A stretch of DNA of 54,829 nucleotides, counting the filler, from Sluysia triapertura (Eukaryota): the NCBI GenBank assembly GCA_046118255.1. It is 4 parts of 4 records of this genome, joined end to end, with 100 filler letters (N's around TTAATTAATTAA, not from the genome) between each part and the next. Parts side by side here need not be neighbours in the genome. Positions count along the whole stretch, not along the records: positions 43,380 to 54,829 come from JBJNIA010184601.1; 3 more parts are not named here. One strand, 5' to 3'. Made by a program: the position numbers and the translations under genes. Below are positions 9,201-54,829 of the stretch, in pieces (position 1 is the first letter of the stretch; each line of letters begins with the position of its first letter). A model generated the notes under the pieces. That model had not been told where the DNA came from, searched no databases, and worked only from the letters and a program-made list of their open reading frames with translations.

Positions 9201-10599
9201 GTCTGTTATCATTGAGTGGATTGTATATTCGAGTTATTGGAGGATGTCGGTTTATTACTTCGTTTTACATTAATTATTTTTGTGGTTAATTCTTTTAAAT
9301 GAGTAATTTCCAAGTTATTAATTCTCTATAAGTTGATTACTGATTTAAGATTATTAGATTTATAATTTAACATTTCCTGATTATGATATTTGCTTCGGAT
9401 ATTTAAATTTTTTTCGAGATAATTGATATTTGTGATATTTGATAAATTGTATTAATTGTGATATAGAGAATATAATTGAAGTTAAATCTTAATTTGTTTT
9501 GAATATAAAGTTATTAAAGAGTTAAATTAAATTAGTTAAATAACTATTAATAATTATTATTATGCAAACAGTTATTATTATTAAATTATATTTAAAAATA
9601 TGTTTCATTTAAATAAGATAACGCCCTTAAATGTAGATAGCGTATCAAAAAACGCTTTTATGTTTGTGTAAAAAGAAAATATTTGCAAGGAAACAATTTT
9701 TTCAAAAATCAAATGTATCTCCAAATTATATAACTAAATAAAGTTGACGCATAATAACATTCATTGAATAATTTAATCGTGCATTTAAATAATATTTCTT
9801 AATGCATACGTGCAATATTATTAATTTTTCATTTTTAGAAAACAATATTTTCTGATTATTTTGCAAGTCATTTATGACATTTTAAATTTATGACAAGCAA
9901 AACTTCACTGGAAAACAAAATGGAACAAAAGTAAAATGTTAATTTTTATTTTGAGTAATCATAAATACAAAATTATAATTATTTAACGTGATCAAAATAT
10001 TCAAATAAACATATAATTTTCCCTTGGCGCATGGTCCAAGTAGGTACACCGTTTGTTTATCAAATATTAAAACAGTAATATTAATAAATATTAATAGATC
10101 ACAATGTTTGGGTTGCGAGATTGTGGTAATTTAATGATGATGGTGATGGAATACTTACAATTATACTTTGCTTTATGAACTGTGAATTCGTGTTTGTACA
10201 TTGTTAACTGTAACTCGAATGGTATATTGAATCACATAAAAGTGATATATTTAACAGCGAATGTATGAGAAATTTTACTAAGTACATGTTTCCAAAGTAC
10301 TATGAAGATGAATGTGATTTGGATGGTATTTGTTAGAAAGCATGTATTTTTTGCAATTTAAATGATACAGCAGATGTGAACTAAGGATTTCATACATAGT
10401 CTGTCGTAATTATATTTAATTCTACATTAGTATTATTCGGATAATTAGAATTAAGATGAATGTGTTGCGCTTCAAAACTTTCATTTAAAATTTCACTAAA
10501 TATTTCATAAATATTGTAAAGGTGTAAAAGTTTTAGTTTCATTTTGATTCAACTTTTTATGATCGATTTTATGATTTATCCTACTTTTCGTTTTATACT

Positions 10600-13624: not shown

Positions 13625-14474
13625 AGCATACATAATAAAAGTATATATCAAATTGATGCTCATTAAGAAACCATTCTAAATATGTTATTGATATTGACGT
13701 GTGGTGTACCGTAAACATGTTGTATTATTGAAAACAAGTTTTATAATTTATTAATTTTTATTCAATTTAAGTTAATCTATTGTTATATTGATAAGTATTA
13801 TTATAACTAAGATATTAAATTTTAATTTTATTATGTCCAAAAGATAAGAGTTTGTTTGCCATAAAACTCATTATCTTTGGTTAATTGCTAGATAATACTA
13901 AGAGGGAAATTTATGTTCAAATTTGATTAATAAAATTGGTCGGCATAAAACCGACTCTAATAAGTAAGTATGTCTTTGTCGACATGCACAATAATTAAGT
14001 CGAATTGCGGACTTCCTAACAATTATCCAAACACTATATATAGAACCACATTTTTCTATAATAAAAGAAAGCTGATTCAATACAGTAGTGGCAAACATTG
14101 ATTGAATCTTCAAATTCTTTAGAAATCGAACTAAATTTTATTAATAAAGCCAACTTATTTGTGGACTAACATATTTGTGGTTAGTTGAGTCTTGAGCTTT
14201 TATTATTTATTTATTGTATTCTGGTACTAACAATTATTTGAGTTGTGTAACCCCTGAGATCGAGTATTATAATTGAGATTGAGACTCATTTAATTGTCTT
14301 TTATAATTTAAAGAATAATATTAAAAAGATAAAAACACAACATTATTAATTATATATTAAAGAAATACAGCGACGGGCAATTTTAGCTGAAGTTTAGAAG
14401 GTTACACTTGTGATATTTCCAGAAAATGCGTCAAATAGAATTTGAATAAACTCTTTAAATATACATTCTAACTT

Positions 14475-14673
14475 TATAATAATAATAATTATATTACTTA
14501 TTATTATTATCACTATTATAATGGTTATTATTATTATCATTATTATTATTTTTATTATTATCGTTATTATAATGATTATCATTATTATGATTATTATTAT
14601 ATTTATTAATATTATTATTATTATTATCACAATTATTATCATTATTTTTATCATTATTATTATTATTGTTATT
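14475..14673 (+). repeat. Degenerate (AAT)n/(ATT)n microsatellite in intron
   Basis: Trinucleotide run directly upstream of the RGS exon acceptor; generates the spurious poly-Ile and poly-Asn ORFs. Confidence 0.95.
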
Positions 14674-14679
14674 ACACAG

Positions 14680-15120
14680 GTAAATCTTGATTCCAAAAGC
14701 CGTCAAATAACCCTCGATCGAGCTTCCCAACCGAGCTCAGACATGTTCGACATAGCTCAGAAACGAATTCAGACTTTAATGGAAATTGACTCATACCAAC
14801 GATTTCTGCGCAGTGATATGCTTCAACAAATGCTGATCGATTCTACCATTTCGACTCCGCGATCGTCCATTATGAGGATAAGTTCCCTGCGCAGTTCCAC
14901 AACGAGCAGTAGTGCTACTAACAGTACTCATTACACTGGAGGTGTTTGTAAAACCAGTATTGATAAGTCTGGTACGCCCTGTTCGAATGAATCTGGGTCT
15001 AGCAACAACAACAATAATAATAATAATAATAATAACAATAATCCTAGTACCAGAAGGATGCATGCCAGTACTTCAGACAATTGTATACCGCATCACGCAT
15101 ACTCACGATCTGCAAACTAA
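14680..15120 (+). CDS. Regulator of G-protein signalling (RGS) protein, terminal exon
   Basis: Acceptor ...ttacacag|GTAAATCTTGAT. VNLDSKSRQIT...MFDIAQKRIQTLMEIDSYQRFLRSD is the C-terminal RGS box, followed by a Ser/Asn-rich tail and TAA. Confidence 0.9.
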   Translation, partial: VNLDSKSRQITLDRASQPSSDMFDIAQKRIQTLMEIDSYQRFLRSDMLQQMLIDSTISTPRSSIMRISSLRSSTTSSSATNSTHYTGGVCKTSIDKSGTPCSNESGSSNNNNNNNNNNNNNPSTRRMHASTSDNCIPHHAYSRSAN

Positions 15121-19804: not shown

Positions 19805-22475
19805 TGAAATAAAATAATAAAAATAAAAATAACACAAAACGCATATATTGTTTACATATATTTCTTTTAGTTTTTTAATTCTTCTTATCTTTCTATCTTT
19901 TCTTAACGGACTTCTTTAAAATATAAACTCATATATCTTTTAACACTAGTTCTTTTTCTTGAATATAATTTATTTTATGTCAAATTTGTGAATGTCTTGT
20001 CTATTCATGAATTTTGCGATTTTTGCTTAAATCTTATTAAATAAGTAAGTTTCTTGAAGTTTCTGATTCTGTGAATTTTTTAATGACTTTAGGAATCTTT
20101 AAACTATTGTATAATCTTAGAGTAGTTAACTTGAAGTTGTCAACTTTGAAATCTGTGTTGCGAATTGTTTGTTGAAATAAAATAAAATATCATAGAATGA
20201 GAAAAAGGAAGAATAATAATAAAATGAGAAAAGAGAAATTGTAGGAAAGATATGGTGACGTTAAAAGTGTTAGAAAAAATTCCATTTAAATTATTATCAT
20301 GATTAAATTTAAATTACAATTTTAATGATTTTTTGATGTAATAAAAGTTGAAATATTATGAAATGTGGTTTTAGTGTGATGTGTTGAATTTAAAATTTTA
20401 AGTGATAAAGTTGGCCACCACACTTTCAATTTATATGGTCAATTAAAAAAGATCTGTAAAATTGGCCCAAAAATATTTAATCATTCGGTGGTTTAAAAAT
20501 CAAACAGTTCTTCTAGTCGTGAGAAAAGATATATTACTTTAATAACAAATTCGGTTATGTAAATAACTTAATTTAATGTGTAATGTTTTGTAATGTAAAT
20601 AATTTAATTTAATTTATTATATAAATTAGTGTAAATAAAAAGTTTCAGAAAATTCAATAATTTTTAATTTTATAAATCTAAGTGGTTTTAATTAAAAGAT
20701 TAATTAAATCAGTTCTTAGAAAATCTTTATCAAAAATTATTTATAAAATTTAATCATAGAAAATTATTTTATCTTATTTATCACATAAATATTTATTGTC
20801 AATCTTTAATAAAATATTTTTTCGGCATCAAATACTTAGAAATCCAAATTGTTTATGTTTTGTTGGCGGCATAAAAAAGAAAATAAAAGTTATATAAAAA
20901 CATTAAGTTCACACTATAATAACATTACGTTCTCTGGTTATCGACTTCGTGAAAAGCTTTAACGAATAGTATCAGCGCAGTGTTACTAAGTCCGATTCTT
21001 CGAAAAATCAATTGGAACCTTTTTATTGAACAATATTTCTGGAAACAATTTCATATTCGCCAATCCATGAAAACCTAAGATGGTTTTTGTTAAGTTCAGC
21101 CCTAATCATTAGCTTTAAAATCGACATAAAATTTATTTGATCATATCCAAGCATTCGCCTGGATTAAAATCTTTTTTTAAAAATCTTTGAAGTTATTGAA
21201 TCAGTAGAAATCCTATATCATTTTATTATTATTTTTTATTATAACTGATTTAAATTGTGTAAATTAACTTATTATTTTAATAATAAATATTTGGTTTTTA
21301 GTTCGTTATATTTATTAATATCAATTAAAAGGAACTTTAATATAAGTAAATTAGAACATATAATTTTTAATAATGTCGGTGTAATTTTTAAAGTTTAATC
21401 TTGTTCATTAAAATCTGGAAATTGCTGTAAGAGTAAGGACGTTTTCGAAGGTTATTGTCATTTAGATCCTGTGAATACAAATCGTAAATCACAGGCGAAC
21501 CCGTTTCTATTATCATAATTGTTGGTGATAAAAATTAGAACAGTTATAATATAATATAAAGATTTTCATTAGCATTAATAAAAAGGTTTGAATATTTTAG
21601 ACTTAAAGTCTATTCACTTTAAAAGTTACTGATTACGACGTTTAAAAATTTCACTAAAATTTTTGTAACATTTTCCGTAGTAAATTTTGGTCTAATTATA
21701 CGAAAAAAATAACGTCTAGTAATTCTGATAAATATTAATTGATTTGATTATATTTATCCTGGTAATTTCGGCAAATGTTATTTCGTTATTGTTTCAAAAT
21801 ACAAACTTTGTAAGTTCGAAAGATAATTGTGTGAAAATAATAGTCTTTTGTTAACCAAAATAATTTAAGATATAACTTGTGTTTTTAACTCGTTATCTAA
21901 AAATAATCGTACAATAATATTTCTAAAATTCGTTAACTGAAGAATACAAGAAATAAATATTGCCACTCTTAACACAAATATTTTATATTGTTCTTTAGAA
22001 AATATAATTTTTGTTAAACAACAAAATCCTAAATAGTTTCTTTTTGATGTTAATTTTGTTTGTATCTACGAACTGATTTTATTTATTGCTTAACAATGCA
22101 GATGCTAAAAACTGTTCCGAGAATAATAAAAAATAATTTCTCGAAAATTTAATTTATAAGAAAAAAAAGTAATCGCACTAACGTTTTTAAACATTTATGG
22201 ATTTAATATTGAAAATTTATATTTAATATGAAATGCAAACATATCCAAAAAAAGTATCAAAATTTGTATTTAAATAAATATAAAATTTTATATGCATATT
22301 CTTTGTTGATAAATAAAACTTGATATTTCACTTTTTTTATATTCGCTTTAATAACCAAAATAAATTTTATTGATTATTACATATATAAGTAAATTCTTTG
22401 TTTAATTCAGTCAATAAAGTGCACTTAAAAACGAACGATTTTTAATTAACATATTATTTATTCTCGCCAAACTTA

Positions 22476-23088
22476 ATGGGTATGGTAAAATCTAAGAGCA
22501 GACGAAAAAAGAACAATACTCTTCGACCGACTTCTGGTCCTCAAAATGTTTATGAGCAGCCAAATATGGATGATTATGATGAAGTGACAACATCGCCAAA
22601 TTTAAATAATAAAGAAAAATGTATATGTTTTTTTCCTTTTGTAGAAAATCAAGAAAATGAAATTAGTATTCATAAAAATGACACTGTTTATATATTGGAA
22701 GATCCTTTAAATGAATGGGTTAAAGTGTATAATAAAAATAGTGAAAAGTCTGGTTTTGTACCATTAAAATGTTTGGAAAGATTTACCGGAAATGTGACGG
22801 ATAAGCATTATTTTTATGATATTAATAAAATATCAGCAGAAAAAAAGCTTCAACGAGCTGGAATTAAAGCTGGAACTTTTCTTGTAAGACCTAGTTTTTC
22901 AAGTAATATTTTAACTATATTTGTGTTATTTACTTCAGGACCAAATTGTTATGCTTTAAGTGTTAGAGAAAACTCAAATAACTCATGGTGTATAAGACAC
23001 TACTTAATTATTAATGAAAATAACAAGTATAAATTGAATAATGGTGTCTCTTTTAATAGTTTGGAAGAGCTTATAGTAAAGTTGAAAA
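22476..23088 (+). CDS. Src-family tyrosine kinase-like protein, N-terminal exons (SH4-SH3-SH2); kinase exons not seen
   Basis: MGxxxSK myristoylation motif plus basic patch; SH3 (ENEISIHKND..WVKV..SGFVP); SH2 (AEKKL...GTFLVRPS...YALSVR...IRHYLI...FNSLEELI). 36-nt intron 22903-22938; donor GTTAGT at 23089. Confidence 0.88.
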
Positions 23089-24224
23089 GTTAGTTCGGTA
23101 TTATAATTGATGATAATATTAAAATTTGTATTATTATTAATACAGTTATTTTCTAATTAATTAATTTTTAAAAATTCTTTTCTTGTTTCTTGTAAGTTTT
23201 CGTATTATTAATTATTATTATTATTAATTAATTATTATTATTAATTAATTAGCACAATTAATAAAAAATAGCATAGAAAAGCTGGAACGTTTCCTTTCCA
23301 TCGAAATAATTCGATTATTTTATTTTTATAAGTATAATTTTAAAAGGAAATAAAATTACACCTTATAATTAAAGTTTGATAGAATAATTTTGGAGTTGTG
23401 AACACATCATGCGTAAATGCTAAAGGATATATGAAAGTGATCCCAAGTAGGACCTATTATTGAAGAAGTAGTGCTTTGAGGACTCATTATTTATAGCGAT
23501 GAATGGAGGGCTATGAGAACGTAATAGTTACATAATACTGTATTATAGAATTAAAATTTGGAGTGCAACTTTTGATTCAAGTACCAAACTGTAGATTTTT
23601 AGTACATGAGAGTGTATATAGTATGTTTGAGTGTCCATTAATGCATCTAGAAAGTACAATGTTTAATCAAATAAAATTGACATTACCTAAATTAAACAGA
23701 TCATTTAAAGATCTACATGAAAATATTGAAGTTACACAGATTACTGTTTAACGTAATGAATGTAGCCTCATTCCTTGGAAAGTTTACATCTCACAAAAGA
23801 ATAAATCTTATCCATACGTCGAAACGACTAATAATATCGAGCAACTTATTTTTTACATACCATAATAATTTTAATAACCTTGTCTCTCTTCACAATTATA
23901 ATGTGCATCTATTCACTAAAAACACACTAAATAACAATTTACATAAATAATTACACAGATTTATCACTACGAGATTACTTCAATGTTAGTTAATTTCAAA
24001 CAATTACGACCTAATCGTGAATAGTAAGAATCTTAAAACTTTTAAGAGGAAACACAAGTCAACAATTATTTGTACATTCAAACCACGCACATAACTCTTT
24101 TTCTTAGGTTCTTATGGCCTTCACATATTAAATATTGGAATTCAAAGATAAATTGTTTGAGGAAATCATCCTGCTTTTTGCAAACAATTATCATCAGAAT
24201 ACCAGTCTGAATTCCTACTATTAT

Positions 24225-27000: not shown

Positions 27001-27117
27001 TGTTGGGGTAAAAGGCCTATAAAGTGCCAAGTAGTATAACTGAATATATTGAAAATGAAATTGTTAGACGGGGCTGATAGCTCAGTGGTAGAGCAGTCGG
27101 ACTGCGCAGACGATGGT
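27001..27117 (+). mobile_element. tRNA-containing LTR-like element, best-preserved 5' part, cut by contig end
   Basis: Starts TGTTGGGGTAA like the copies at 37284-37391 and 51071-51214; contains GGGCTGA-TAGCTCAGTGGTAGAGC (box A, D-arm). Confidence 0.85.
27071..27117 (+). tRNA. tRNA-Ala-like sequence (element-borne, truncated by the gap; probably not a canonical tRNA gene)
   Basis: D-arm GCTC-AGTGGTA-GAGC. Using the 3' half from the 51071 copy, the acceptor stem GGGCTGA/TCAGTCC-A has G3:U70 and A73. Anticodon arm is irregular. Confidence 0.55.
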
Positions 27118-27302: not shown

Positions 27303-28596
27303 TTTATTGACATTATAGTAGTTTATTAATGTTGATAATTATGGTCGTCATGTATACTTATTCCGTTTTATCACCTAGTTTATAGAAAAAATATTGATAA
27401 ATAAATTAATACATTAAAGCAGTTATTGATATTATTATTATTATTGTTAGTGTTAGTGTTAGTTTTAGTTTTAGTATTTTCGGTCTTTCTAAAACTCGGC
27501 ATGTACTTCAATTCAATTACATTTGAAGTTCATTTTATATATTAATCAATTTTATCATGTGTAATTTGTTAATGGGAGGTTGACATTTGTATTAAAAAAG
27601 GCAAAGTTGGTTGATAATTTACAAATGTAAGGAAATGTTTTGTTCATAAAAGTATGCGTCTATATTGTCTATGGTCAATTGAGCGGTGGGTGAGAATCAA
27701 TGAATTTCTGGAAGGCCAGTTTGGAGAATTGTCGGAATTAAATTGTTTTTCCATCAAATTTCGTCCAAAAGGTGGAAGAAGCGGTAGTCAGTGGGGGCTG
27801 GGCTGGTTACTATGTAGGATGATTATGAAGTTTGTGCAGTTGGGGCATTTTTCTTTATTTTTTGCATCATTTTGTCCAGCTGGTTGCAATATATTTCTGC
27901 TTGCTTGTTTATTTATCCTTGACCAAGCACTGCGATTATCATCAGAAGTAGCAATTCCATTCATAAATGGATAAGATTTATGACAAGAAAGCAACATTCC
28001 AAACACGTTTGTTTCTTTATTTCATTCAGTTCATGTTGAACTCATTTAATCAAAGTTTTCACTTTACCGATTTGACCTAAATGAGTTAATATTGTTTGTT
28101 TAATAATAATAATGTATAGGCACCTTTAGTTCATCATTATTGACCTTTGATTCTGGGAGAAATATAGCGAAATAATAGTAACACTATTGCCAAACGTATT
28201 ATTAATGACTTTCCGACCGTTTTGTTTTCAACAAAATTAAGTTTTAAAAAAGTTTTTAATATTTTTTCTAACTTACAATGATTTCTTTAAATAGGTGAAA
28301 TATGTAAATTTCCAACAAAAAGAAACAACAATAAAATGTTAAGCTAATGTCAAATTATAAGCTGTTAAATTTGGCATATTGTTAGCTACAAATTTCATAC
28401 TTATCAAATTGGTAGATAAATAATGCATAAAAGAAGTATGATTATATGCATTAGGAAGTTATTATTTATGTATTGTTTAAAATTTAACAAACATTTTTAT
28501 ATATTTTGTGAGTTGTTTTTTTCACTTAAAATTTTACATTTTATCTACCAATCATTAAAAACTTGTAAACCAATTAATTTATTGCCTTTTTCAAAG

Positions 28597-29211
28597 GATT
28601 TTTGCTATGAAAATGAAAGCGACACATGGTCAATATTAGAAGCAGTTACTTTATGTGTAACTGTGATAGTGTATGCACCAGAAAGTGCACGTGCACGGCA
28701 AATGATGATTATTCTTCAAGCAATTCTTCCTCTTATACTTCAAGATCTCTCGACAGCATCTGGTCATTTACAATTGCAGCATCATCATCATCATCATAGT
28801 AGTGGTAGTGGAAACTTATTGAATAGTAGTGGAGGTGGTGCTGGTATTGGTTCTGCTGGCACTGCTGGTGGTATAAGTGGTCCAAGTGGTGCTGGATTTC
28901 TTCATCATCCACTTCATCACCCACATCATCCTATACAACAAAGTCAATCTGCAGAAGTTATTCTAGGAAGTAGTGGCATGCTATTGAGTTCAGCAGGGGC
29001 TCCAGGCTCAAGTTCAGGAACAACTCCAGTCATTGGTCCAGGTAGTTTAATTCATCCTCATTCTGCTCCACCGATGGGATCAGGAATAGGTGGAGTAGGA
29101 GCCGTTGCTGAGACTCCTCTTCCGCATAGAGCTGAGACACAGGCAATACAACAGCTAGCTGTCTCTATTAAACAACTAATTTGTACATGTGACTATTTAA
29201 CAAGGTATGTT

Positions 29212-29289
<78 letters not shown>

Positions 29290-32200
29290 ATCACTGAGAT
29301 TAAATTCTAATAATTGCATTTTTCACTTTTATATTAGTCAAATTTTAAAGTACTATTTTTCTTCGTGAATTACAGAGTTTCTGATAGACCATTCGGAAGT
29401 GGTGGAACTGGTACAGGAGGTGGACGAGAAGGTAAAGCTGGTGACGAAAAATGCAGTTTTCGAAGAGGTGGAGGAGGAACTAATTATTCGCAAACTCAAA
29501 ATTCGGTAATATTAGATGAGCAAGATGAATCTCCATTTCGAATTATTGAGGAGTCGCAAACACAACAGCAACAACAGTCACAACAAATTGGAGTACAACA
29601 AGCACAAGGAGGTTTGATTGGACGATTTAGAAAGAACACTTTAGCTTCTGCAAATAACCTCATTGCAGATGAAGAGAAAATAATCGGACAACAACAAGGT
29701 GTTACAACAACAGGTGGCCGTGGTCCGAGTTCAATCTTATTAGCTCCTCATGAAGCAGTGCTGCAGGTTGCCTGTGACTTTTACACGACTTGCCATAATA
29801 GATTAGGTGAATTAGGCGAGAGACATAAAGCAGCTGTGGAATTATTGGATCAAAAATCAATTACAGTTTGTTTATTTAGTTTATATAATGAATAATAGTA
29901 AATATATTATAATATTAATGAGAGTCATAATTATTCAACGAAGTTTGTTGAGAACTTATTTAATCTTTTGCCTATTAAACGTAACTGACACATGAATGTT
30001 GATTGTGTAATCGTAAAATAAATAACTCCATTGTTAAATTTAAATTTTTAACTACAATTTTAATTATTCAGCGTTTATCAGAACTGGCTCAAATAATAAT
30101 CAAGCAAATACCGACTGATATGTTAGCTTTAAAAAGTGAAGCTTTGCAACGATTTTTTCTGGAAATTCCACCGTTTATAGATTGGAATCATGAATCACTG
30201 AAATCTTGTAAAGCCTTAGAAAATTTGATTTATCGACTTAATCGTACAATAACAAAGATTTTGAAAGATGGTTTTGGAAGAGTTAGTTTGAAACATATTG
30301 ATCATATTATAATTCACAGCGCGTTTTATGTTATTATTAAGAAATATAATAAAATATTGTTAGGTTGTCATCACAACCCTCCAAAATCATTAAATTACAT
30401 TAAAGAAATTGTTTAAAATAATTAATTTCTATAAAAGAAAATATTTCTCGAAAAAAGAAATCAAAAATTCTAGAGCATTCCAGAAATTCCATTGATTTTG
30501 ATTGGTTGATGATTAGTATATATCTGGTATCAGTTTATTTTAAAACACAATTTAATGACATTTTTAACACGGTTCTAAACTGATTACACTTGTGAGTTCT
30601 TCTGATTCATCTCTCTTTGGTAGAGATGGAGTGCTATATTTAGTATAAATTCAAGTTGTCATGTAATAAATATAACTGAAAACTGTAAACTAAATTTAAA
30701 ATTAGGAGCCACACTAAGAACTTTTTTAATTTTAAAATGTTTATCTCTGAAAAGCCTTTTGAATTATTAATTAAAAATAATTGGATTTTTAAAATAATGC
30801 ACTTAAATATTGATAAAAATTCGAATATTTTCATAAAAATATTATCATATGTCCAACAAATATGTTTTATTCCTTATGTTTTTTGGATGCTAACATAGTC
30901 TGACAGATTCTTGCCTTCTTTCTTCTTGTTTGTTTGCTAATTTCCAACTTCTACTTTGATTAAGTGTTTTTGATGCTTCTGAAAATAGTATAAAAAATTT
31001 TCGAGAGTTTTGAACATTTTAATGTTGTAAAGCAAACGAAGGGTAATTTTGTATGTTTTTATTTAATGTGTTTTTAATTTTTAATAATTTTTACAATCTT
31101 TATAAATTTATAAATGGAGTTTTTGTAAAAATTATTAATCTATTTATATTGTAAATCTAAAACAAAGATTTAATTTATAATGGTCATATTTTTAGAGATT
31201 TGTTAATTGGGACAGTCTTACAAATTTGATACAAGCTGTCTTTTTAATTGTCAAACACAACAAAAGTGTGGCTTATATGAAAGACGTTCGAGTAAGTCTA
31301 AAATTATTTGAAAATTTAATATCAAATCAAAAAATATTACATAAATAATAAATAAATATTTGCTTGTTTTATGTTATGTACTTTGTATTCGGTTAATTTT
31401 AGTAGAAGTTTGAATTTGTGCTGTATTTCTAAGTTTAATCTAAAATCCTTATGATTATCCAAGAAATATATTAATAAGTACTCTAAAAATAGATTCAATA
31501 TTTCAATATACGAATACGGTGTTCTACCAAAGTTTTTAAATGTTTTTTTGAAAAATTTCGACATAGTTTTCTTATAATTTATTTTCAAATGTAATGTCTT
31601 TAAAAAAAATCCATCTTGAAAACATTTATATGTTACCTGATACTAAATTTGTATTGTATAATAGTAAGATAATCTTGCATGACCATTGGGGATCATTTGT
31701 TCTTGGTTTTTTTTATTTTTATGAATTAGACAATTATCAATAAATAAAAATAATTCATTTTCGTTATCAGTAAAACTTATCGAAACGCACTTTGTCGCCG
31801 CTTATCGCACGTATAACATATATAACTTACAATATATTGTGTCAAGGCACTAAGTGTTGATAAATGAATAATAAAATCTGAATAACAATATATTTTGTGG
31901 TTCTTAGTGCTCAACTTTATATAAAAAACATAACATAACATAGTGTTTAAAGCATTGATATTTTACAAAACGACAACTGGCAATGATTATGCTCATTGAG
32001 GATATACGAATATTGAATAATCCGACTTCAAACCATATTTTATTTTGTAAGATAGTTTATAAAGTAAACATTTGCCATTGTGAGTGATGATAGTGCTGCA
32101 TGAATCATTGAGTTATTACTTAATTTCAAGACTAAACTACAAATTTCATTACATTGTTATATTCCATTTATATCATTGCGTTTATTAACTTTTTACTAAC

Positions 32201-36080: not shown

Positions 36081-39000
36081 GCATACAATTCTTTACTATA
36101 TTATTATATATTGTCCATTTAATGCAGACATTTTTACTTGTTGGCTAATTAAAAATTAAATTAATTTCTAGAATTCTAATTTTGTCAAATTAATTGTTAT
36201 TTTGTGCATTTCTATTTTTCAAGAATTTCAATTTTATGATAAAGAGTTTGTCTAATTCATTCTGTAACTACATAATAATCGAATAATACAACATAATCTT
36301 GCAATCTCAATCAATTTCGAATACAAATAAAATGAAAAATTCCTGGTAAACAAATATAAATATTTCTTGATAGATATCATAGAGTTTTTTTATTTTTCTG
36401 CTAATCTGTTTTACAAGTGCTCGAATGGAACTCTAGTTTTCATTGAAACGATTCAAAATATGTTGGTCGGCGCTTAATTTTAAAGTAAGTAGAAATAAGA
36501 GTTTCAACTTCTTATTTGCTGAAAATAACAATGCTTTTCCGAGATGTAACCATAATGTCTATATGAATATTGATTAACTCAAAGAATAGTGTGGACGATA
36601 ACTTAAGCTTAATTTCAATTTTACTATTATCGAAATTTATGAATGTCTCTTTCTTTAAATTAATAGAATATTCGAGTGAATATTTTAACAAAAATTTAAC
36701 TACTAAACTCTTTCTGTAATTATTATATTTGAATCTATAACTTAGTTAAGTTTGTTAGAATTTGAGTGTTTAATTTATAACTCTCTTTTGTCTTTATTTA
36801 AATGAGGGATTGTAAATAATTCGTGAAAACGTGTTTTTTACTACAGTTAAAACCCTGTAATTTATTTTTTAAATGATACCATTTGCCTATTTAAAATGGC
36901 TTTTGAAAGAGCGCTCATAATTAAGATTTGATAAGTTGATATTAAATAAATAAATAAATAAATTTATCAAAAAAGGCTATATATAATGTTACTAAAATAA
37001 GGTCTCTTAAAGGTTAACTGAAATTTTTTGAAAGTCTCAAGTGACGGGACAAAACATTTATTATTAATTTACGTAGAGTTTAGATGTTTCTTAGGAACAT
37101 TCTAACGTTTTCCAAGTAGTTAAAATAATTTCGTTTTCAATAATCTCTGTCAATATGAATGTATTATAAGAATCACTAATTTCTTTTCCATAATATATAA
37201 ATTTCTTCAATGAAAACGAAAAGTTGTGCTTTTAATCGATATTAATTTTTTGAGAATTAAGTACTTTTTAATGTTGTATTATATGTTAGACTTCGTAAAA
37301 TTGACTGATCAGGGATCGAACCCGGGACCATCGCTGCCCCGTCTAACGATTTTTTACCAAATGGCACCTTAGGTCTTTTCTTACCCCAACATATAATTGA
37401 AACTCAAATTTTTGTAAAAAGATTTTGTTATGACAAAATTGTAAGTCAAACTTTTGTAAAAAAATCAACTTATCAGTTGAATTTATGCGTGGCCACTATT
37501 TGTGATGCTATTAATCAAATGAAAATTTTGACCTTAAAGATCTTTCTTTGTACAAAAGTTTATTTTGTAAACGTGTAATAAGTAGCTCTGTACCTACTGC
37601 GATGAAAAATCTAGGCCTTTGGCTACTTTTTAAAATAATTATTTTTATTTACTAATATGACTAGTTATAATTTTTAGCAAACTATTATTAGTTAATATCT
37701 TTAACATTATTTAACATTATTTAACATTATTTAATTATTATCAATTATTATTATTTTACAGGCATATTTATAGATTATTATTCTATTGTTATCTACATTA
37801 TTATTATAATTTATAATCGTCGTCACTTAATGATGAATGAGTGAAACATATTCGTTCAGTGTTTTTTGAAAATCGAATTGGATATTGTTCGGTGCACGAA
37901 AGGGTTATTGATGACAAAAATGAATGAATCAAATGATATTCTAACTTTAACATCATCAATATTTTCACCAAAGTATTCCAATATCATCTAGAATCATTTA
38001 GAAGCATCATTTCTTGAATTACCGAACATATCTTTAACCAACTTCAAGTTCTCAACATCTTCACACCCTCTAATCATCTAGAATTCTTCAGAAATATATT
38101 TTTTAATCAAAATCGAATTAAAATTTACTATTAGTTTTATTTTTAATAAGATAAAATCAAGCTTTTTGGCTTTGGATATGTATTTTACTTTCTGACACTT
38201 ATTACTGTGGTCTGGAGGTTACTATTCACTCGTCTCTGGTGTTAGGGATTTTATTACAAAATGTATTCAAGATTCGAACTTTCTCTTTTGCTTCCTTTAT
38301 AACAACAAAAATAAACGAGTTAAAATTTATTTACAAATCTGAATAACCGAACACATAAGTTTCTGTACGTATAAAAATTGCTTTGAAATAAATTACTAAA
38401 GTACCACAACATGTAATTTTTGAATGTAATTGTTTTATTCCTTATTTTAAGTAAACGTTATTCGAATTTAATATTTATATCTTTAAATATTATTCTACTA
38501 ATAAAAAATTTATCAGAATTATCGTTAATAAAGAAAAACTTCTCTGTTTTCTTTTCCTTAAACGTATCACTTCTTCCGAATAAAGCTTTCTTAAGCTGCC
38601 GAATTTCATATCTTTTATCTTATTCGAAAATTAATTATCTTCTTTAAATCAAATATGGCTATTTCCAAATTTGCACCGCCTAGATATTATATATTATTAT
38701 ATTTTGGCTGGTAAATTGTTATTGTTTTTTAATTATTTTATAGTAATCTTCTATATATATTATTTTTTACAATTGTTTTATAGAATAATTATTTCATGCA
38801 CAATAGAGAGAGTCATTTAATCATACTTTTGTAGGTTGTTAATAATAAAATAATAGTTGTTTTATAAATAATAGAGTCAATTGTTACTGTTTTTCAATTA
38901 TTTTGAGATTATTTATTTACTATAAGAATAATTCTGCACAATTTGTATAAATAATTAAAAACAATTTTATAAACAACAGAGAATTACCTAAAATTAATAT

Positions 39001-45148: not shown

Positions 45149-45873
45149 TTGATTTTGCCAGATAATCAATTGAAGGTTTGGGATTATCACGAGATGTTGT
45201 TTTGATTATGTGGACTTTACCAAGCTCATTGCTTCGTAAAACATTATAAACTTTCATAATGGAAGGGTCGAAACGGCTAAATAATAAAATATCAAAATAA
45301 CTACAGTGTCGCAAAATTCTATATTCCGTTTAAACAAAATAAAAAATCGTGAAATTAATAGTTAAAAGCAATAGATATTATTCAAATAAAAGGCTTCGGG
45401 TTTATAATATTAAAACTGCATTAAATTAATTAAAATTTTCATATATCGAATTAAAAATTACCGATTTAGGGAGCAATGTAACGGTAAATTAAGTTTTGCT
45501 GCTACATCATAACATTTGATTGTGCCTTCCACTGATGAAGATATTGGTTTTTCACAAAATACAGCCTTTCCTGTAAAAATTAATGACACTACTAATACTA
45601 ACCATAATTTAACGATTGGATTATCAACTTTTCGTGAGAATCTGTATAAGTGCATATGATTACACCATCTAATTCGGGATCCTGTAAAATTCTGTCTAAT
45701 TCATCAGCAGTTAAAAATTTTATGTTATTAAATGTTTTTTGTAATTCTATAAGTTTTTCTTTATCTATATCAATAGCATAAGCCAAAGTTGCTCTTGCTG
45801 AATTAAGAATATTCTTCAGGTGTATTGTTCCAGCCCTTCCTATTCCAACTAAAGCTAATTTATAAAGTTTCAT
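45149..45873 (-). CDS. Gfo/Idh/MocA oxidoreductase, myo-inositol 2-dehydrogenase-like, first three exons
   Basis: Exons 45873-45603, 45570-45462 and 45276-45149. Rossmann LVGIGRAGTIH, GKAVFCEKP, LNRRFDP, IIKTTSRDNPKP. Later exons not identified. Confidence 0.9.
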
Positions 45874-46189
45874 AATTAATTACAAATGGTGGTTATGTTT
45901 CTTAAATTGAAAATAAAAGCTTATATACTCTTACTGTAACCTTGAAATTATATTTACTAATGTATTACTAATCAGCATTATTTTAAGAATAAAGTAACTT
46001 ATGTTATGAAATACTTAAGATTTAAAAATCAACAGATGATATATACATAATTTAAATTTCATCTTTAACTGCAAAATAACAAGATTTTGACTTAAAAATT
46101 TTATAATTAATTTTAAATAAATCTTCAGTTCTATTAATTTTTTAAACAAATCTTCAAGTATTTTACCTTAAATTATAGCGATTATATCA

Positions 46190-47345
46190 GAAGCAACGAA
46201 CCCATGGCACGGGAAAATTTTTTGACGCGAGAAAAATATAAATTATAATATGAAATAATATTAAAATTGAGGATGAATTTAACATATATTCATGAATTTT
46301 GTTTTTATTTTTGACCTTCAAATACGCATCCAAGAAAAAACAAGTTATTCGTTGATCAAAAAGTATGAAATGTTACTTAAAGAAGATAATATTCTAAGTG
46401 CTTCATTTCCAGTTCTTTAATATGCAGACATATTGAAACCAACATGCAGTCTTAGAAAAAGCAATGAAAAACAGTTAATTTCAAAGTAACTCTATAATTC
46501 TACAGAAATATTATGGATTTAACAAAAATTAATCATGAAAACGAAGATGAAACAATTGAATTTGACATTAAAAATATAACTTATTATTATCTAATAAGTT
46601 TACTAATTTCAAGAAATACAAGATGTTATCTAAGTTAAAATATTATAAAACTTGTATAACAAAAATAATGAAACAATTAAAAGCAAAATATAAAGATATT
46701 AATGATTGAGTAGATAGTGGTCAATATAAATTAATTATAAACAAACAGATCAGTAGGGCTGCAGATAAAGAAGAATTTAAAATAATTGTGGTTTACATTA
46801 TATTTCAATCTGACAAAGTAAAATACTGACCACAATCAAGATAGATAAGATTATAGATTTTGTCAATAAGTAAATTAAACTTATTGTAAAAATATAATAA
46901 GAAGAAAAGAAAATCAGAATCCTAATAAACCATATAATATATTGGAAATTTATTTGACAATATTAAAATACTGAGTATAGCCATACCTAAAATATGTAAT
47001 TCCACAAATAATATGCTTTTTGTAGTAATATTGTTGGCCATGTTCGGCATAAATAAAAATAGTGCAAAAAAAGCGTTAGATTGTAAGCAACAAAAATAGG
47101 AAGAAAATTTTCTTTATTAGATACTTAAAATCGTCCAGTATCAAAACTTAAACGAATTAAGACAAAAGACACAAAAATTTAAAATCTTTATCTTAGTGAC
47201 GGCATCAGTGAGAGAGTATATTGTACTGTAGTCATTACAGTCGCTTTTCAATAACTGAATTGTTAAACGTTTTAAAAATCTTTCAAGATATTGTCCGACC
47301 AATGTTGAGATGCTTTTGAAACTGGATATATAAGTTTAAATAAAA
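46190..47345 (+). mobile_element. Heavily decayed hAT transposase remnant
   Basis: SERVY (~47207) and PTNVEMLLKL (~47295) resemble the hAT C-terminal dimerisation domain; left boundary uncertain. Confidence 0.4.
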
Positions 47346-47406
47346 TAGATAAATTAAGAATAAAGAATAATGAGAAAATGTTTTATAATATTAGAACTGC
47401 AGGTAT

Positions 47407-48000
47407 TGTATTGTCAAGGTGTTGCAGGAGTTTCTATTGAAAGCTTAAAAATTCTTATTCTTAACTGCAAGTTATCTGAGGAGTCGGTTTGCCTCTATAT
47501 TGAAGACGTACTATTGGGATTTTTATGACTTAACTTAATTATAACTTAACTTAATTAACTTTAGATAAAACTCTTTACTTATAACTTACGTCTTATCTGA
47601 CGATGTCTAATTAATTTATGATACAACCTTTTACGAGGTGTTGTCTAATTGAAATTATACATTTTATAATTGCGCAATCCGTATTAAGGAATTTCTCGCA
47701 AGAGACATTAGTATTTTAGAAGATTAAGCAACCCTTGTTAAGGTGTTGCTTGACAAAACGAATTTTAAAAGTTTATTAAATTAAAAACTCTAATATTCTT
47801 AAAGTATATTATCCACAAAGACTAATCAAAAATTCGTGAAAGATTAAGACTATAATAATGATAATAATTTAGTTAACTACTGAACCTCTGTTAGCAGTTT
47901 TAGAAAATTTTAAATAAGTTTCGCAATCCGTATTAAAGTGTTGCATGAAATAAAAAAGATTTTAAGTCAAAGTTATGTTTCCTATTAAAGTGAAACAAAA
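47407..48000 (-). repeat. Candidate 3' LTR of the Gypsy-like element
   Basis: Minus-strand end reads ...ACAATACA; minus-strand TATA-like at ~47495; internal repeats CGCAATCCGTATTAA (x2) and GTGTTG (x4). No partner LTR in the window. Confidence 0.35.
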
Positions 48001-48618
48001 GCCTTATATAAAAATTAATTACTTGTATTGCATGGAATAAATAAATAATAAATAAAGAAATTATTTTAAATAATTAACTTGCTTTAAACAATAATTTATA
48101 TTTTAAACAATAATTAAAAATTTTGATTTTTTTAAATAAATTTTTTAATTTTTTAATTTTATAATTTTTACTTTAATTTTCTTAAATAAATTTTTAATTT
48201 TTGATTTTATTTTTTAATAATTTTTTACTATTATTTAATTTTCTTTTTTTAATAATATTAATTTTTTATTTCTGGGATTCCATGTTAATTTAATATTTAA
48301 TAATTAATTTATATTCTAAAATAATTACATTCTGACACTAAAACAATTTATTCTGACATTACAAAACTTTATAATTTAAATTAATACAAATTATAATCCA
48401 CATTAATAATCATTAATAATATTTACAAAATTTAATAATCATTAATAGTATATCAACAATCATTAATCATTAATATTATTTACAATTTACTTCACTGTTA
48501 GGGAAAATTCGTCCCGAATCATAAAAGCATTGCTGTAAAAATATAATAAGATATAAGGATCATAATAAATCATAAAATGTAAGGATCACGTAAAAAAGTT
48601 ACTAGTTAGATGTAAGTG

Positions 48619-50519
48619 TTAGTTTGAATCGTATATGTCGATATCGGATGCGTCACTACAGGACGTTGGATCTGCTGGGCTGCTCATAGATTGATAACGA
48701 TACTTCTTGTAAGTTTTGAATGTCGTATTATGCCCAAATGGGACGTTAGTAGGTTTGGGAGAATGTTAGTAGTCTGGTACTGCTTTTATGAGTTTAGACG
48801 GTATTGTTGTCAATGATGACGACGACGATGATGATGTTAGCGCGGCATTGCGTAGCGTACTTTTTTGTTGTGACGATGTTGATAATGGCATTGACATTGA
48901 TTCTGATGGAGCCACGAAAGTATCTTTAGACTTAGAAGGCGTAGAGAAAAGTAGGGGAGGAGGAAGAGAGAAGTTCGGTATAAAAGTTAGATCTTTCTCA
49001 CGGATTAGATCCAGTAAAGACATCCACGAGCAGATCATACGAGGCGGTATCGGATATAGCAGTCTAAAAGTTAGTCTTCCCCTTAAAATAGCATTATCGG
49101 TTGTATAAAACAAAAGATTATTATTTGTAAGATTAATTAACGCTTTAAGCCAACTGAACGGTAGATTAAGATCTTTAATAATAAGACACGGGTTCAAAGA
49201 CACCGTGATCTTATCGTGCAGATGTCCTAACAGAAAGTGGCGGACATCATCAATATCTTTAGTGTCGGAGATATCTGAGTCTTTGATCTCCTGAATGTAT
49301 CTTACGAAGTTTTTGATACGTAATTGAGGTTTTATATTTATGTCGGTGTGATATTGTTTAGAATATGGGACGCAAGATATTTTTGTAATATGAGGACGGT
49401 TCAAGAAATCAAAAACGTATGAATAAGCTATGAAAACTAATCGGTCCTCATCATAAGCAGACATAGGCGGAACATGTGTAAAAGAAGTTTCGTTCTGCCA
49501 ACACGCCGTATTAGCAACATCGTCCTTATAAAGATTAGGGAAGAAGGATTGAAAGGAAGAAGGTGGCAAGGGATAAAGAAAAGCAATTGATGTGGGGCTT
49601 CTACTACTATATTACATTTTTTATAGATATTAGTGACATTCAATGAAGAAAAACTGTGGAAACTGGTTGTAAAAGGTACCCCGCTGTTTATTACGACACC
49701 TCGTGCCACAACTAAATATAAGGAGTTTATGGATTCAGGAACTTGAGAAAGGCCGTCTAGTCACACAAAAAGAGAGTTGGAAGTTAACGCGAAGATATGC
49801 GTGGCTAAATTGATATCTAATTCTGATTTAAGACTATTGGGGGTTTCAACAGAACAAGAAAAGAAGGCAGGGATGATACTTTCGTGGCAATACTTGTCCA
49901 TATATACATAAAAAGTTTTTTGTTGGTTGACTAACTTCGCTTGAATATGGCTATAAAGGAAGAAGGAAACGTAAAACCATACATGAAAATTTTAAATAAG
50001 TAAGCTATTAATTTATTATATTATTTTATTCTTAAATAATAAATATAATTAGGTAATTTTAGAACACCCTATCTTTTCTTCAAAAAAGGATTAATAGGCT
50101 ATGAGGATGTTGGCAATTGCGTCTCTTTTTCCTTATAAAAGTGTTTTAATTGACGCCTTCTTTTATTGCGTCTTTGTGATTTAGACAAGTTTTTTGGAAA
50201 ATTTGGGGGAGGTCTTACCTACCCTTTCCTACTAAAGTTTTTTCTTTTAATAATTGACGCCGGTTGATAAATATCAATTCCGGGCCCCTCGGAAGCATCC
50301 GTTATATACTTAACGGTAAAGGCATAAGAACGTGCGTTTATAGTAGATATCGCACTCAATGATGGTTGTTCCGCATAGTGGGCAAACAGGTAAATGTGAA
50401 GGCGAAGATTCAAAAAGGCTGTATAGACAGAAAAAATGGAAGCGGTGAAAACATGGAGAAGTTTTTGCAAAATACTTTGGAATGGAGCGGAGATAAACAG
50501 CGCAGGTAGAATATGACAC
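48619..50519 (-). pseudogene. Two-exon orphan gene, decayed, probably cargo of the Gypsy-like element
   Basis: Intron 50222-49951 (GTAGGT...ttccttcttcctttatag) joins FSRKG|HIQAKLVNQQKTFYVYMDKYCHE in frame. Two frameshifts and two premature stops; Ser/Pro-rich tail ending DIDIYDSN*. Confidence 0.6.
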
Positions 50520-50800
50520 TGTCTAACCGCAAAGAAAATATGTAATAAGATGATAAATGAGTATTAATAAAAATATTAAAAATCCTAAACCTAAATAAAA
50601 GTTAAATAATATTTTAGTTTGTGAATGACTCGAGATGGATGGTACACTATCACATACAGTCATTTACACGATCATTACTATTTCTAATAACAAATTTAAT
50701 ATTTATCCTTATGATTTTTATATTACACATGACCCAAGTTGAATGGGAGTACCATTACAAATGGCCAATTGTGTAATGTGTATTAAATTTTACATAAAAT

Positions 50801-53328
50801 CTAAATGAAAAAATGGGCCCTATACCTAATGAATAAGTAGAATTTTGGGATAATAAAGTTAATCATTAATGTTATTAAGGAAATTGTTATTAAAATGTAA
50901 TTAAAAGTTATGATGAAATTATTGATGGATTTCATTAGAGCTGGGAACTCAATATTATTTTTACTTATACTCATACTTATATTTGTAGCATTCGAACTCA
51001 TATTCATATTCCTGTTATAAGACATTCGTAAAATTGTTATTGATTTTTAGCGTTTTCTCTGATTTCGTATTGTTAGACTTCGTAAAATGGACTGACCGTG
51101 GATCGAACCCGGAACCTCTCGCTGCGCTATCACTGAGCTATCAGCCCCGTCTAACGATTTTATTTTATTATAGTCAATTTTACCAAATGGCACTTTAGGC
51201 CTATTACCCCAACAGTATACGAATCGTTTTCGTACTTATCAATAACTGGTACTTGCACATCATGATGTCTGATCGTTGGCCAAAATCATTCCATATTTCT
51301 TAATATCCAAAACTTGATAAACATGAGTTTATTATTCGGAATATGATATAAGCGAATAGTATCGTTAGGCAATATCATTCCGTAACGTAAACCGACAGAC
51401 AATTCATATGCAATTATTAATGTATTACTATATAATGGATTATTGATACGTACGATATTTTCTAGATAACGATAGATACCCATTGGAAATTCAATTGATG
51501 TCGATGATTGTTGAACAACAAATGACTTAGTTCTAATATTATATGTCGGTGATTATTGAAAAGTAAATAGTTTAGTCCTTATTTTATAGTATCGTATTAA
51601 AATAGTCTTTGAGTCACTTTGAGAATCATATTCTCATTCTATAGTTATCGTTACACTAATTAATTGATATTCAGCAAGATCAATGCAAGATATAAACCAG
51701 TAGAAATCTTGTTTACTTGCTCTTATTTCGGTTTCACATCAATCCATTATACAACATTTTATTTGGACAGAAAATAAATTAATCTGATCTATTAATATTC
51801 TAGCGTAAATGTCTTTTTGAGTAGATACCAAAATTATCTTAAGCGAAGTATTTCTTGAGAAGTAATTCGTGCTTGATATACAAGATAGATAGGTGCATAT
51901 TAAGATGGTTGATTTTACTTGAGTCATTTGCCAATTTCCATATATAAGTGGAACTTGATTATTTGTAGCGTATTCATAAATTGGAGGTAGAAGTATCGTC
52001 ATATCCGGTGGAGTGTAATTATTTCGATGTGGTATTGTATATGCATCGTCGTCATCATTGTAATTGTTATACGGTATTTATTTGATACAAACATAATAAT
52101 CGTTAATAATACTATAGCAAGAGCAATTCCGAACAATATTACTGATATTATTAGTATTACCAATGCTGGATTATTCCGTAGTGTTTCTAATATTGTTAAG
52201 TGTTTCCTGGTTCCTTTAAATGCAAAATGCAAATATTTTGATGAATGCCGAATTTTCACAATAATATGTCTATCCTCGATAGGTAGTATGTTTGAACATA
52301 CTGTGGCTGGATATCTCAAGTCATTATCAATATAGTTTTCGTATATGGTCCATGAACTAAAATTAAGTCTGGCAAGTTTTAAACAGGCAACTTTGGCATG
52401 AATATTTTGATTCAATATTCTAACCCTTATTTCATTATCTCTATTATAAAAGTCAAAATGTTCTATTTTAAAAGAATGCTCATGGCATGGAATTACCGTA
52501 TCTATTGTAATTAAAATCAACGGTATAAGATTTTTATTATTTGTAGGAACTCGTACTGCCCTATTAATTTGAAACAAATAAAGTATGGTCCAAAGTGTAT
52601 ACAGTACCATGAAGATTAATAACATTATAAAGAATTTATAAGAGTGTTCCATGGTATCTTTGGTAGTCGAAATTTTTGAAGTGCATATCTGTTTCTTAGC
52701 TGTATTATAATTAAGCAATGTTGTTGGTACCTCTGTTGTTTTTCTATGTTCCAATTGTTTTACGTTTTCGATAAATTTCCAAATATCTGTGTATTTCTTT
52801 TGGTATTTAGAGAAAAGGTTATTAACATGGGTATGTAACCATAATGCAAAAAATGCGAAAAACCGTTTATATGATGTGGTAATGACTTTAAATAAATACA
52901 GTAGATTTCGAATTCATGTCTTAGTTTCATTTTCTTGGAAATAAATTCGAATTTCCAGTGTTGATTGTAGATATCAGTAATCATTATCAGTAGCCATGAT
53001 TTATAGCAATATTTATATTTTTGTATTCTTCATCCGTCTCCGTTGCCATAGCGTTAGTTACTAGTGATAGAATAATCATAATTAATACATATATCCAATA
53101 AGTTAGTTTCTTAAAACAATTTCTATTGAAACCATTTCTATTCTTTATATTGGTCATTATCATTATTGTGTCTTGAGCTTCAGAGCCAATACTTGATGAG
53201 TCCGGACTTTCCTCTGATGTAACTGTTGATGGTGATCCCCATGATACATCCGACATTTGAAGTTTAGATACAACGACATCGGGTAATGGTAAATCTGGAA
53301 ATTGTAATAGTGGATTCAAATTTGGCAT
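50801..53328 (-). pseudogene. Env-position multi-transmembrane polyprotein, disrupted by frameshifts, stops and an insertion
   Basis: Contiguous same-strand ORF pieces with repeated hydrophobic segments (YWIYVLIMIILSLV; FFIMLLIFMVLYTLW; LVILIISVILFGIALAIVLL; ILITISLITLMINFII) separated by hydrophilic domains with NxS/T sequons. Confidence 0.7.
51071..51214 (-). mobile_element. tRNA-containing solo-LTR-like element with GTAT target-site duplication
   Basis: TGTT...AACA termini with GTAT on both flanks; tRNA-like 51147-51088 with box A, box B and TTTT; inserted in the membrane-protein ORF. Confidence 0.9.
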
Positions 53329-53379
53329 TTAATGTAAGGTTAGTTCATCACCGACTGTGAAACTAGTAGTTGAGGTATA

Positions 53380-53700
53380 ATCATATTTGACCCTGGTTAT
53401 AAAACCATATTTAATGTGAATGACCATATCTTTTAATTTATTAATGACATCCATACCTAATATTAATTCGTACGGGCTACTATCCCAAACGTTTACTAAA
53501 ACTTGTACATATTGTCCTACTACTTATATATAGCACAATATAGTTCCGTTGATATTTATGGGTGTTTGATTAACATTATATGTTATTGTTCTTGATCCAT
53601 TTATAAATACTAAATCCCAACTAGTCAAAAAATTTTTATGAACTACTGATATAGTACCGCCGGTATCAACAATTGAGCTAACCCATCGCCTAGGTTATCT
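53380..53700 (-). pseudogene. Retropepsin-like aspartic protease downstream of integrase
   Basis: SSIVDTGGTISVV (DTG at 53667-53659), flap-like TYNVNQTPINING, and PYELILGMDVI (ILGMD 53463-53449); one internal stop. Confidence 0.85.
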
Positions 53701-53759
53701 CTATGAAGATGTATCATAAATATTACTTGTTTATGTCGTAGTGCATGAATTGAAGGCGG

Positions 53760-54590
53760 TTTGTCTCGATCTTTAAGTCTGGATTTAATTTTCAAGTTTG
53801 ATTTTTGTACTTTCCTATTTCTCAGATTATATTCTTCTTTTGGTGCACTCTTACACCTATTGATGTGTACTACAAATTAATTTTATTAGGATCTTTAACG
53901 AACACATTTGTATCAGTAACTTTTGTTATAAAATAAGGCCCTTTAAAAGGTTTATGTAACTTAGGTGATTGACCAGGTTTAGTTATTGGATAATCTATCA
54001 ATAATTCGTCACCTATTTTAAAAGTATGTTTTTGGCTGTCCTATAGTATATTTCTTGAGAATACTTAATTTGAAGACCTGCTCGTTTCCATGCGTCATGT
54101 AATGATTCCACCATTGTAGTCACATACTCTGGAATCTCTAAGTATTGTGAAGTTGGAGGAACCCATTCTAAATCTACTGTCATATTAGAGTGTCTACCAT
54201 ACTAAATAAAATGGAGTAAAATTAGTAGATTGATGTACGGAACTTCTCTACGCAAAAAGACATGGTGGGATGTATAAATCCCAATCAGATTGTCCATCGT
54301 TTACGTAAGATTGAATCATATTTATGAGAGTCCTACTAAAACTTTCCAATAATCCGTCAGTTTGTAAATGGTAAGGTGATATATAAATTCTAAGGATGTT
54401 AAAAATCTTTGCTACAGGTTTAATCACGTCGCTAGTAAAATTAGTACCTTGATCTGTCAGTAATTTTCTAGGAGTTCCATATCCATATATTATCTTTTCT
54501 ACGAGTACCTGTGCTACTGTTTCAGCCTTCTGATTGGGCATCGGATAAGCCTCGGGCCATTTTGTCAAATAATCAGCGAATACAATTGTT
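53760..54590 (-). mobile_element. Ty3/Gypsy integrase (rve core + GPY/F module), decayed
   Basis: DYLTKWPEAYP...LLTDQGTNFTS...PYHLQTDGLLES...WD....LFA, then PKLHKPFKGPYFI and VVHINRCK; stops and frameshifts present. Confidence 0.93.
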
Positions 54591-54829
54591 TGGATTAGTG
54601 AAGGATAAGGGTTGATATAAGGATCAAAACTTAAGATAACAGAATAAGGTGAAAGTTATTAAAAAACTAAGATAAGGCATTATGATGAACTGTAATAGTA
54701 GGATAAGCATATAAAATATTTAAATCAAGATAAAATAATGAGAAATACGAAAAAATAACCCTTTACAAGGTTTTATCTGTTAAAATATTAAAGTACATTT
54801 GTTAATTAATTTAATTATAATTTGTTTAA

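Follow-up and report, generated by a model that had tools for sequence, protein, structure and literature searches.

A candidate retropepsin downstream of the integrase in a decayed Burro-like Gypsy element and its relatives, possibly separating Pol from a membrane-anchored tail

Introduction

In descriptions of LTR retrotransposons and retroviruses a single protease stands ahead of the reverse transcriptase (RT), and the order of their domains is used in classification. Gmr1-type Gypsy elements and Copia have the order PR-IN-RT. Viral leader proteases, such as L of aphthoviruses and L-Pro of closteroviruses, are papain-like, N-terminal and monomeric, and act in cis.

Burro (GYPSM1), a giant Gypsy element of planarians, is described in the cited passages as one giant frame of 4,900-5,100 aa with a Gag bearing CCHC knuckles, a ubiquitin-like domain, an Env between Gag and Pol, ankyrin repeats, accessory ORFs and one protease in the order PR-RT-RH-IN (PMC6431247). 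Errantiviruses of GAG-ENV-POL order with an Env of the HSV-gB type have been reported from Platyhelminthes, Bryozoa and Nematoda (Chary and Hayashi 2026; PMC13524379, in the text cited), and the LTR retrotransposons Juno and Vesta of bdelloid rotifers carry a DEDD exonuclease or a small membrane protein as ORF3 (PMC5408684, in the text cited).

Here we analyse a stretch of 54,829 nucleotides, filler included, from Sluysia triapertura (hereafter the window). We read the element in it as the decayed 3' half of a Burro-like Gag-Env-Pol Gypsy, from a lineage whose extra, post-integrase retropepsin would cut Pol from a membrane-anchored tail; taken whole, this reading seems to us marginally better than even.

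Results

The window has exons that we take to resemble VPS13, RGS, Src-family SH3-SH2, UNC-80 and inositol dehydrogenase (553-4625, 14446-15120, 22446-23093, 28420-30416 and 45598-45879), the picture of an AT-rich, gene-dense animal genome. The element lies on the minus strand (Table 1). A sequence-only reading had called it Gypsy from its GPY/F integrase, and this assignment holds: the window contains the Ty3/Gypsy feature of a DDE integrase with a GPY/F module, which reads GPYF at 53941. A search with this integrase returned four close proteins (P0007-P0010), to which the core is 40-48% identical, with six stops in its 237 codons. In a quick tree, from which L001 and L002 were omitted as near-identical to P0009 and P0153, the window integrase falls on a long branch inside the lineage described below (26-row branch, SH-aLRT 98), with P0007, P0142, P0143 and P0144 at 94. 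The integrase end motif, HINRCK (53867-53850), lies in another frame than the core, and 65 codons without a stop run through it and the linker up to the protease, between frame breaks near 53875 and 53690. The Y-x-L/I/F-R motif that follows is present in 25 of 29 lineage tails. At the other end, integrase homology stops at 54586, with none across 54587-54829, so this copy has lost RT and all that lay upstream. That no canonical upstream protease is visible, as had been stated, is consequently not merely an effect of the window edge, since the element is truncated inside the window. An AT-rich segment (54587-54829) occupies the place of its 5' part. Broken as it is, this copy would not yield an intact polyprotein.

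The domain that follows the integrase is clearly a retropepsin by motifs, profile and fold, a candidate enzyme in a copy with an internal stop. The complete signature first noticed by eye is confirmed by all three kinds of evidence: IVDTGG (DTG at 53667-53659) and ILGMD (53463-53449) share one frame, and the stop and frameshift said to hide the domain are found as an in-frame TAA (53526-53524) and the break near 53690. The distance given for it, about 100 nt past the integrase, is right for the start of the interval then proposed and wrong for the catalytic Asp, which lies 182 nt, or about 61 codons, past HINRCK. A Pfam search, suggested as a check, did match gag-asp_proteas (E 3.8e-4), yet at 21.4 bits against a cut-off of 28.2. 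A profile of 24 retropepsin domains from relatives, some of them post-integrase and none from the window, scored the domain at 54.7 bits; of 1000 shuffles, 976 gave a score, 8.9 at best. Across all six reading frames of the window that profile has no other strong match (iE 4.9e-15, against 0.045 for the runner-up). D10, G12 and G80 are invariant across 20 aligned protease rows, and both D-[ST]-G and hydrophobic-G-x-D are present in the window. The AlphaFold2 model (pLDDT 81, pTM 0.72) finds Ddi1 RVP (Foldseek E 5.7e-4, prob 1.0, TM 0.53) and retroviral proteases as its best structural matches, and every listed match is a retropepsin. As a query on its own, the protease matched none of 215 candidates among longer proteins; a library of 1.84 billion gave three matches, one a retropepsin (P0127) and two low-complexity or unrelated. 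No RT was found after the protease in 46000-54829.

Past the protease, the frame runs through a TAA into the first membrane ORF (TLH*MPNL, 53340-53317), as previously proposed. The signal-like hydrophobic segment of this ORF (53100-53044) sits at a point equivalent to that of the signal-like segment in relatives' tails. Six tail profiles of relatives found no match in the window's membrane ORFs, and an Atlas search with the window ectodomain gave only matches under 0.9. A 7tm_1 hit to the 303-aa ORF (E 2e-5, below the cut-off) was dismissed as two hydrophobic stretches, and the broken frame beyond it matched no Pfam family. A PPxY motif after the tail's membrane segment occurs both in this frame and in the tails of P0151, P0152 and P0155, a likeness at the level of the motif; such motifs resemble viral late domains or Nedd4-binding sites. 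The tRNA-derived, SINE-like repeat has further copies (84-87%) at 27001-27096 and 37284-37337, and ARAGORN found no tRNA gene. The exonuclease-like ORF was recognised by a profile of seven relatives' ORFs, of which it is the lone match in six frames (49506-49117, iE 1.3e-8). Four of those seven match Pfam RNase_T; an ORF of this kind lies 3' of the polyprotein in six loci (L001-L005 and L007), twice in L001, and several, including that of the window, miss the first catalytic motif. Neither the window nor six loci, on contigs that are short or cut, showed the paired long repeats of LTRs.

Table 1 Features of the element in the window
Feature	Position	Strand	Evidence or remarks
Integrase core and GPY/F module, decayed	53876..54589	-	Pfam rve, E 2e-7
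Integrase end motif HINRCK, YNLR motif and linker	53682..53876	-	Frame other than that of the core
Retropepsin (aspartic protease) domain after the integrase	53407..53685	-	Motifs, Pfam, relatives' profile, fold
TAA (53331-53329), then in-frame ORF of 113 aa (53328-52987)	52987..53331	-	Ser/acidic linker and hydrophobic, signal-like segment
Open frame of 303 aa, membrane protein, no family matched	52002..52910	-	Hydrophobic segments 52634-52572 and 52166-52086 flanking a beta-rich stretch
Broken frame with 4 stops, likely a further membrane protein	51190..52077	-	PPxY 51987-51976, signal-like 51912-51871, beta-rich remainder
Short repeat of tRNA origin, probably inserted later than the element itself	51071..51214	-	Rfam tRNA, 29.1 bits at 51088-51147
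ORF of 281 aa homologous to the DEDD exonuclease-like ORF of relatives	48769..49611	-	Profile of 7 relatives' ORFs

Two of the four close proteins (P0007 and P0009) have an in-frame protease after the integrase, and a profile search widened the set to a lineage of giant polyproteins. Their single frame, of up to 3,700 aa, encodes Gag, a gB-type Env with its membrane anchor, optional extra protease(s), the canonical protease, RT, RNase H and integrase, followed by optional extra protease(s), a signal-like segment, an ectodomain and a membrane anchor; the exonuclease-like ORF comes next. The Ty3/Gypsy order PR-RT-RH-IN is thus present in the relatives, in a part that the window copy lacks. A chuvirus/gB-type fusion glycoprotein (PF24664) precedes Pol in 10 of 19 scanned lineage proteins, with Env profile matches in L002-L004; this feature, like zf-CCHC (L002, L003 and P0153) and Retrotrans_gag (P0151), is seen in relatives only. 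With a fusion Env upstream of Pol in the lineage, the tail is a separate membrane protein, and its identification as Env is rejected. In L003 the tail (10072-10743) has the fold of two FN3 domains in tandem (best seen against LAR FN3, Foldseek E 8.8e-8; VIA Z 9.7, rmsd 3.5, 94 aligned), a fold shown for L003 only, since the tail profiles miss the membrane ORFs of the window. An Ig-like domain takes this position in P0159, and mutual matches link four of the six tail groups. Weak ubiquitin-like or UBX matches were noted between Gag and Env (L002:403-3087 and L003:97-3729) and in a downstream ORF (L001:10906-11517). Among viral contigs, P0007 as query found no relative and an alignment query found two ordinary Gypsy loci; among sequencing runs there was one match (X1, 0.55 of words), with no RNA run among the matches listed. 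L042 (P0008), P0154 and L043-L062 are animal retroelements filed in bacterial metagenome-assembled genomes, likely through host contamination of the bins.

A protease after the last integrase occurs in eight of 256 mapped proteins, and all eight belong to the lineage. Among long-tailed lineage proteins, meaning those with 260 aa or more past the integrase core, 8 of 20 show the arrangement in one open frame, versus none of 212 other integrase proteins, 112 of which have that much sequence there, and none of 33 non-lineage loci. Its catalytic Asp stands 47-74 residues past the integrase end motif in the eight proteins, a range that includes the window's spacing. The canonical protease before RT is kept beside the post-integrase one in all five relatives that reach far enough (P0142, P0143, P0144, P0151 and L001), bearing out the suggestion that intact copies would carry two proteases; P0007, P0009, P0141 and P0156 begin too far downstream to show it. 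L001, nearly identical to P0009, has the canonical domain and two after the integrase. A continuous frame of integrase, protease and membrane segment, likewise put forward as a check on intact copies, exists in six of the eight, the exceptions being P0007 and P0144, where no membrane segment was found after the protease. The tail is present without the post-integrase protease in 12 of the 20 long-tailed proteins, the integrase tree calls for four or more changes between presence and absence of that domain, and close sisters differ (P0151 has it; P0152 and P0155 do not). The post-integrase protease is a real and recurrent arrangement, not a local accident, and the architecture is very probably that of a Burro-like lineage in which an extra retropepsin often stands right after the integrase.

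Extra proteases are not confined to this position, since they also lie between Env and the canonical protease (P0142-P0145, L003 and L004). Trees separate them from the canonical domains with support of 87/87 in a 47-row tree whose bootstrap had not settled and from which matches shorter than 70 residues were left out, 92 in the tree used for the AU test and 69 in a third, the latter two built without near-duplicates and dead domains. Leave-one-out profiles sorted 38 of 38 domains correctly (17 canonical, 21 extra), and the extra domains have a distinct C-terminal end. As judged from these alignments, one frame of this lineage appears to hold two separable retropepsin classes, of which the extra one seems to be an old and separate group. 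The proposed tree of first against second proteases resolves in the relatives, the window domain being assigned to neither class. Of 21 distinct extra domains, 19 retain D-[ST]-G; the other two, both dead, come second after the integrase, one in P0009 (repeated in L001) and one in P0141. Between P0142 and P0143 the canonical protease is 97% identical and the post-integrase one 72%, so the extra domain diverges faster, and identity is 52% in the linker that follows and 35% in the tail. For P0009 and P0141 the post-integrase protease stands at 35% versus 38-46% for one linker, with the others at 18-20%.

The post-integrase domain of P0156, folded without an alignment as a homodimer, scored 0.39 against 0.03 for the best of three controls, a prediction for this relative's domain only and one that may echo the solved retropepsin dimers. 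In the predicted dimer Asp614 faces Asp614, at least 80% of contacts agree between runs and pLDDT is at least 77. Among solved pairs, 21 of 30 from microbes and 17 of 29 from eukaryotes came up to the mark used for a dimer; among single chains none of 23 and none of 30, respectively, did so.

Two further arrangements were observed. In L001 (3756-4418), P0009 and P0141 a catalytically dead protease domain comes immediately after an intact one, with ankyrin repeats next; such a pair may possibly form an in-chain pseudo-dimer or act as a regulator. In L004 (3620-5815) three consecutive protease domains, all with DTG, lie between Env and RT.

Discussion

Based on the above data, we propose that the extra protease releases Pol from its membrane anchors, a role for which we see about as much reason for as against. 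The active form of a retropepsin is a dimer, and the site at which signal peptidase cuts is lumenal. In the proposed scheme, two tethers would hold Pol at the ER membrane, the Env anchor upstream and the internal signal sequence of the tail downstream; signal peptidase would free the tail ectodomain, whereupon integrase would still carry the signal. The extra proteases, placed in the two cytoplasmic junctions, would then dimerise where polyproteins are crowded together at the membrane, and would cleave a hydrophobic site just upstream of themselves. By eye, the extra domains are preceded by a few hydrophobic residues such as retropepsins typically cut at, and tails without these domains have such a stretch too. 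Relatives without an extra protease may rely on the canonical one as a fallback, which would make the extra protease a helper rather than a requirement. The earlier proposal of a second protease dedicated to releasing the membrane polyprotein survives as to the second protease; dedication is disfavoured by the majority of relatives that do without it, by its faster evolution and by its occurrence between Env and Pol as well. A more elaborate version, in which a second retropepsin class, apart from the Pol protease, has been duplicated and moved between two membrane junctions, with up to four protease domains per frame, staged, membrane-triggered processing as in multi-protease RNA viruses, dead copies as regulators and the window as a further independent recruitment, is conceivable and rather doubtful.

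The main rival holds that the extra proteases are cargo whose targets are host proteins or other accessory domains, and that they are only excised from the polyprotein and act elsewhere. Their patchy and mobile distribution, from 0 to 3 in an element and both before and after Pol, speaks for it, as do their fast evolution and distinct C-terminal end, the grouping of the first post-integrase domain of P0007 with the pre-Pol domains of P0142 and P0143 (100/96), the ankyrin repeats that stand between the extra proteases of P0141, and the likeness to the ankyrin, ubiquitin-like and exonuclease modules that these elements carry. We nevertheless regard it as unlikely: the junctions on the two sides of Pol account for all the extra domains seen, Gag and the separate downstream ORFs having none, and we know of no host substrate for these proteases. 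Neutral redundancy is less probable still. Recombination between repeated junction motifs would duplicate proteases, and the copies would drift until lost, consistent with the dead second domains of P0009 and P0141, with the post-integrase motif of P0142 repeated (by eye) on both sides of its protease and with frequent loss on the integrase tree; drift would not, however, have spared the catalytic motif in 19 of 21 domains at about 30-35% pairwise identity, nor does it fit an old and separate group.

Two other explanations concern the window copy itself. Its protease may derive from the canonical domain separately and more recently, by copying or relocation, and be perhaps the only protease of its family (RT-RH-IN-PR), in which case the post-integrase position would have been reached more than once. 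The domain scores 57.2 bits with the canonical profile and 52.6 with the extra one, pairwise it agrees best with a canonical domain (P0146), its C-terminal strand has a canonical look, a grouping with canonical domains is not rejected by the AU test (p 0.46), and the upstream part of the copy is missing. The best trees nevertheless set it, on a long branch, beside the extra group (87/87 in the 47-row tree and 87 in the AU-test tree), and the five informative relatives all keep a canonical protease as well; we rate this explanation as low as that of cargo. Far less credible is a nested or rearranged second element that supplies the protease, which is largely refuted. The copy is truncated and decayed, its protease is partly canonical-looking, and in P0161 and P0168 the concatenation of elements has indeed brought a protease behind an integrase; in both of these RT follows, and in the window none does. 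With a stop-free linker of the length usual in the lineage, an exonuclease-like ORF downstream in the expected order and no RT after the protease, this is one element, not two. Both observations named beforehand as fatal, a nested element and an arrangement peculiar to this locus, thus failed to appear. A Gmr1-type Gypsy or Copia element is rejected because no RT lies in 46000-54829 and the relatives have RT upstream of integrase, and a Ginger DNA transposon because the closest integrases belong to RT-containing polyproteins and no matching inverted repeats are among those listed.

Release of Pol by the extra protease thus stays our preferred reading. The lineage keeps several retropepsins that are catalytically intact by motif, in two separable classes and one frame, also after the integrase, which suggests how an element that fuses both Env and a second membrane protein to Pol regains soluble RT and integrase. 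Natural pairs with and without the extra protease are at hand in P0151 versus P0152 and P0155. For annotation, a protease after an integrase need not signal a nested element, and a membrane ORF after Pol need not be an Env.

The post-integrase extra protease is apparently undescribed within this known kind of element. Among the papers listed by searches of the running text of the open literature, none concerns a protease after the integrase, and the consulted text on Troyka (PMC12440569) offers no link to the lineage. The layout of Burro, its CCHC knuckles, ubiquitin-like domain, in-frame Env, ankyrin repeats and accessory ORFs all recur among the relatives, which are no longer than 3,700 aa, and the passages cited on Burro make no mention of a post-integrase protease, an FN3 membrane tail or a DEDD ORF (PMC6431247). 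"Burro-like" here denotes layout and a by-eye match of Env motifs and is no statement of common descent. The relatives share gene order and Env class with the errantiviruses of Chary and Hayashi, and the start of Env resembles, by eye, a Schmidtea errantivirus row in their supplement; "protease" appears once in the main text, for the canonical one, and not in the searchable text of seven supplements (cells of up to 400 characters), so that no extra proteases are described there (PMC13524379). Juno and Vesta likewise have exonuclease and membrane ORFs downstream of integrase, and differ from the lineage in that these are separate ORF3s, that no in-frame Env precedes Pol and that the text cited mentions no extra protease (PMC5408684).

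The order PR-IN-RT was also seen here, in L043-L062. Gmr1-type elements and Copia resemble the lineage in a non-standard position of the integrase relative to the other Pol domains, but there the protease precedes integrase and RT follows, whereas here RT comes before integrase and the protease after it. The likening to viral leader proteases made in the sequence-only reading is a loose one, the common ground being an extra protease in the polyprotein beside the main one: the protease of this lineage is an aspartic one that needs a dimer and occupies an internal junction, unlike N-terminal monomers acting in cis.
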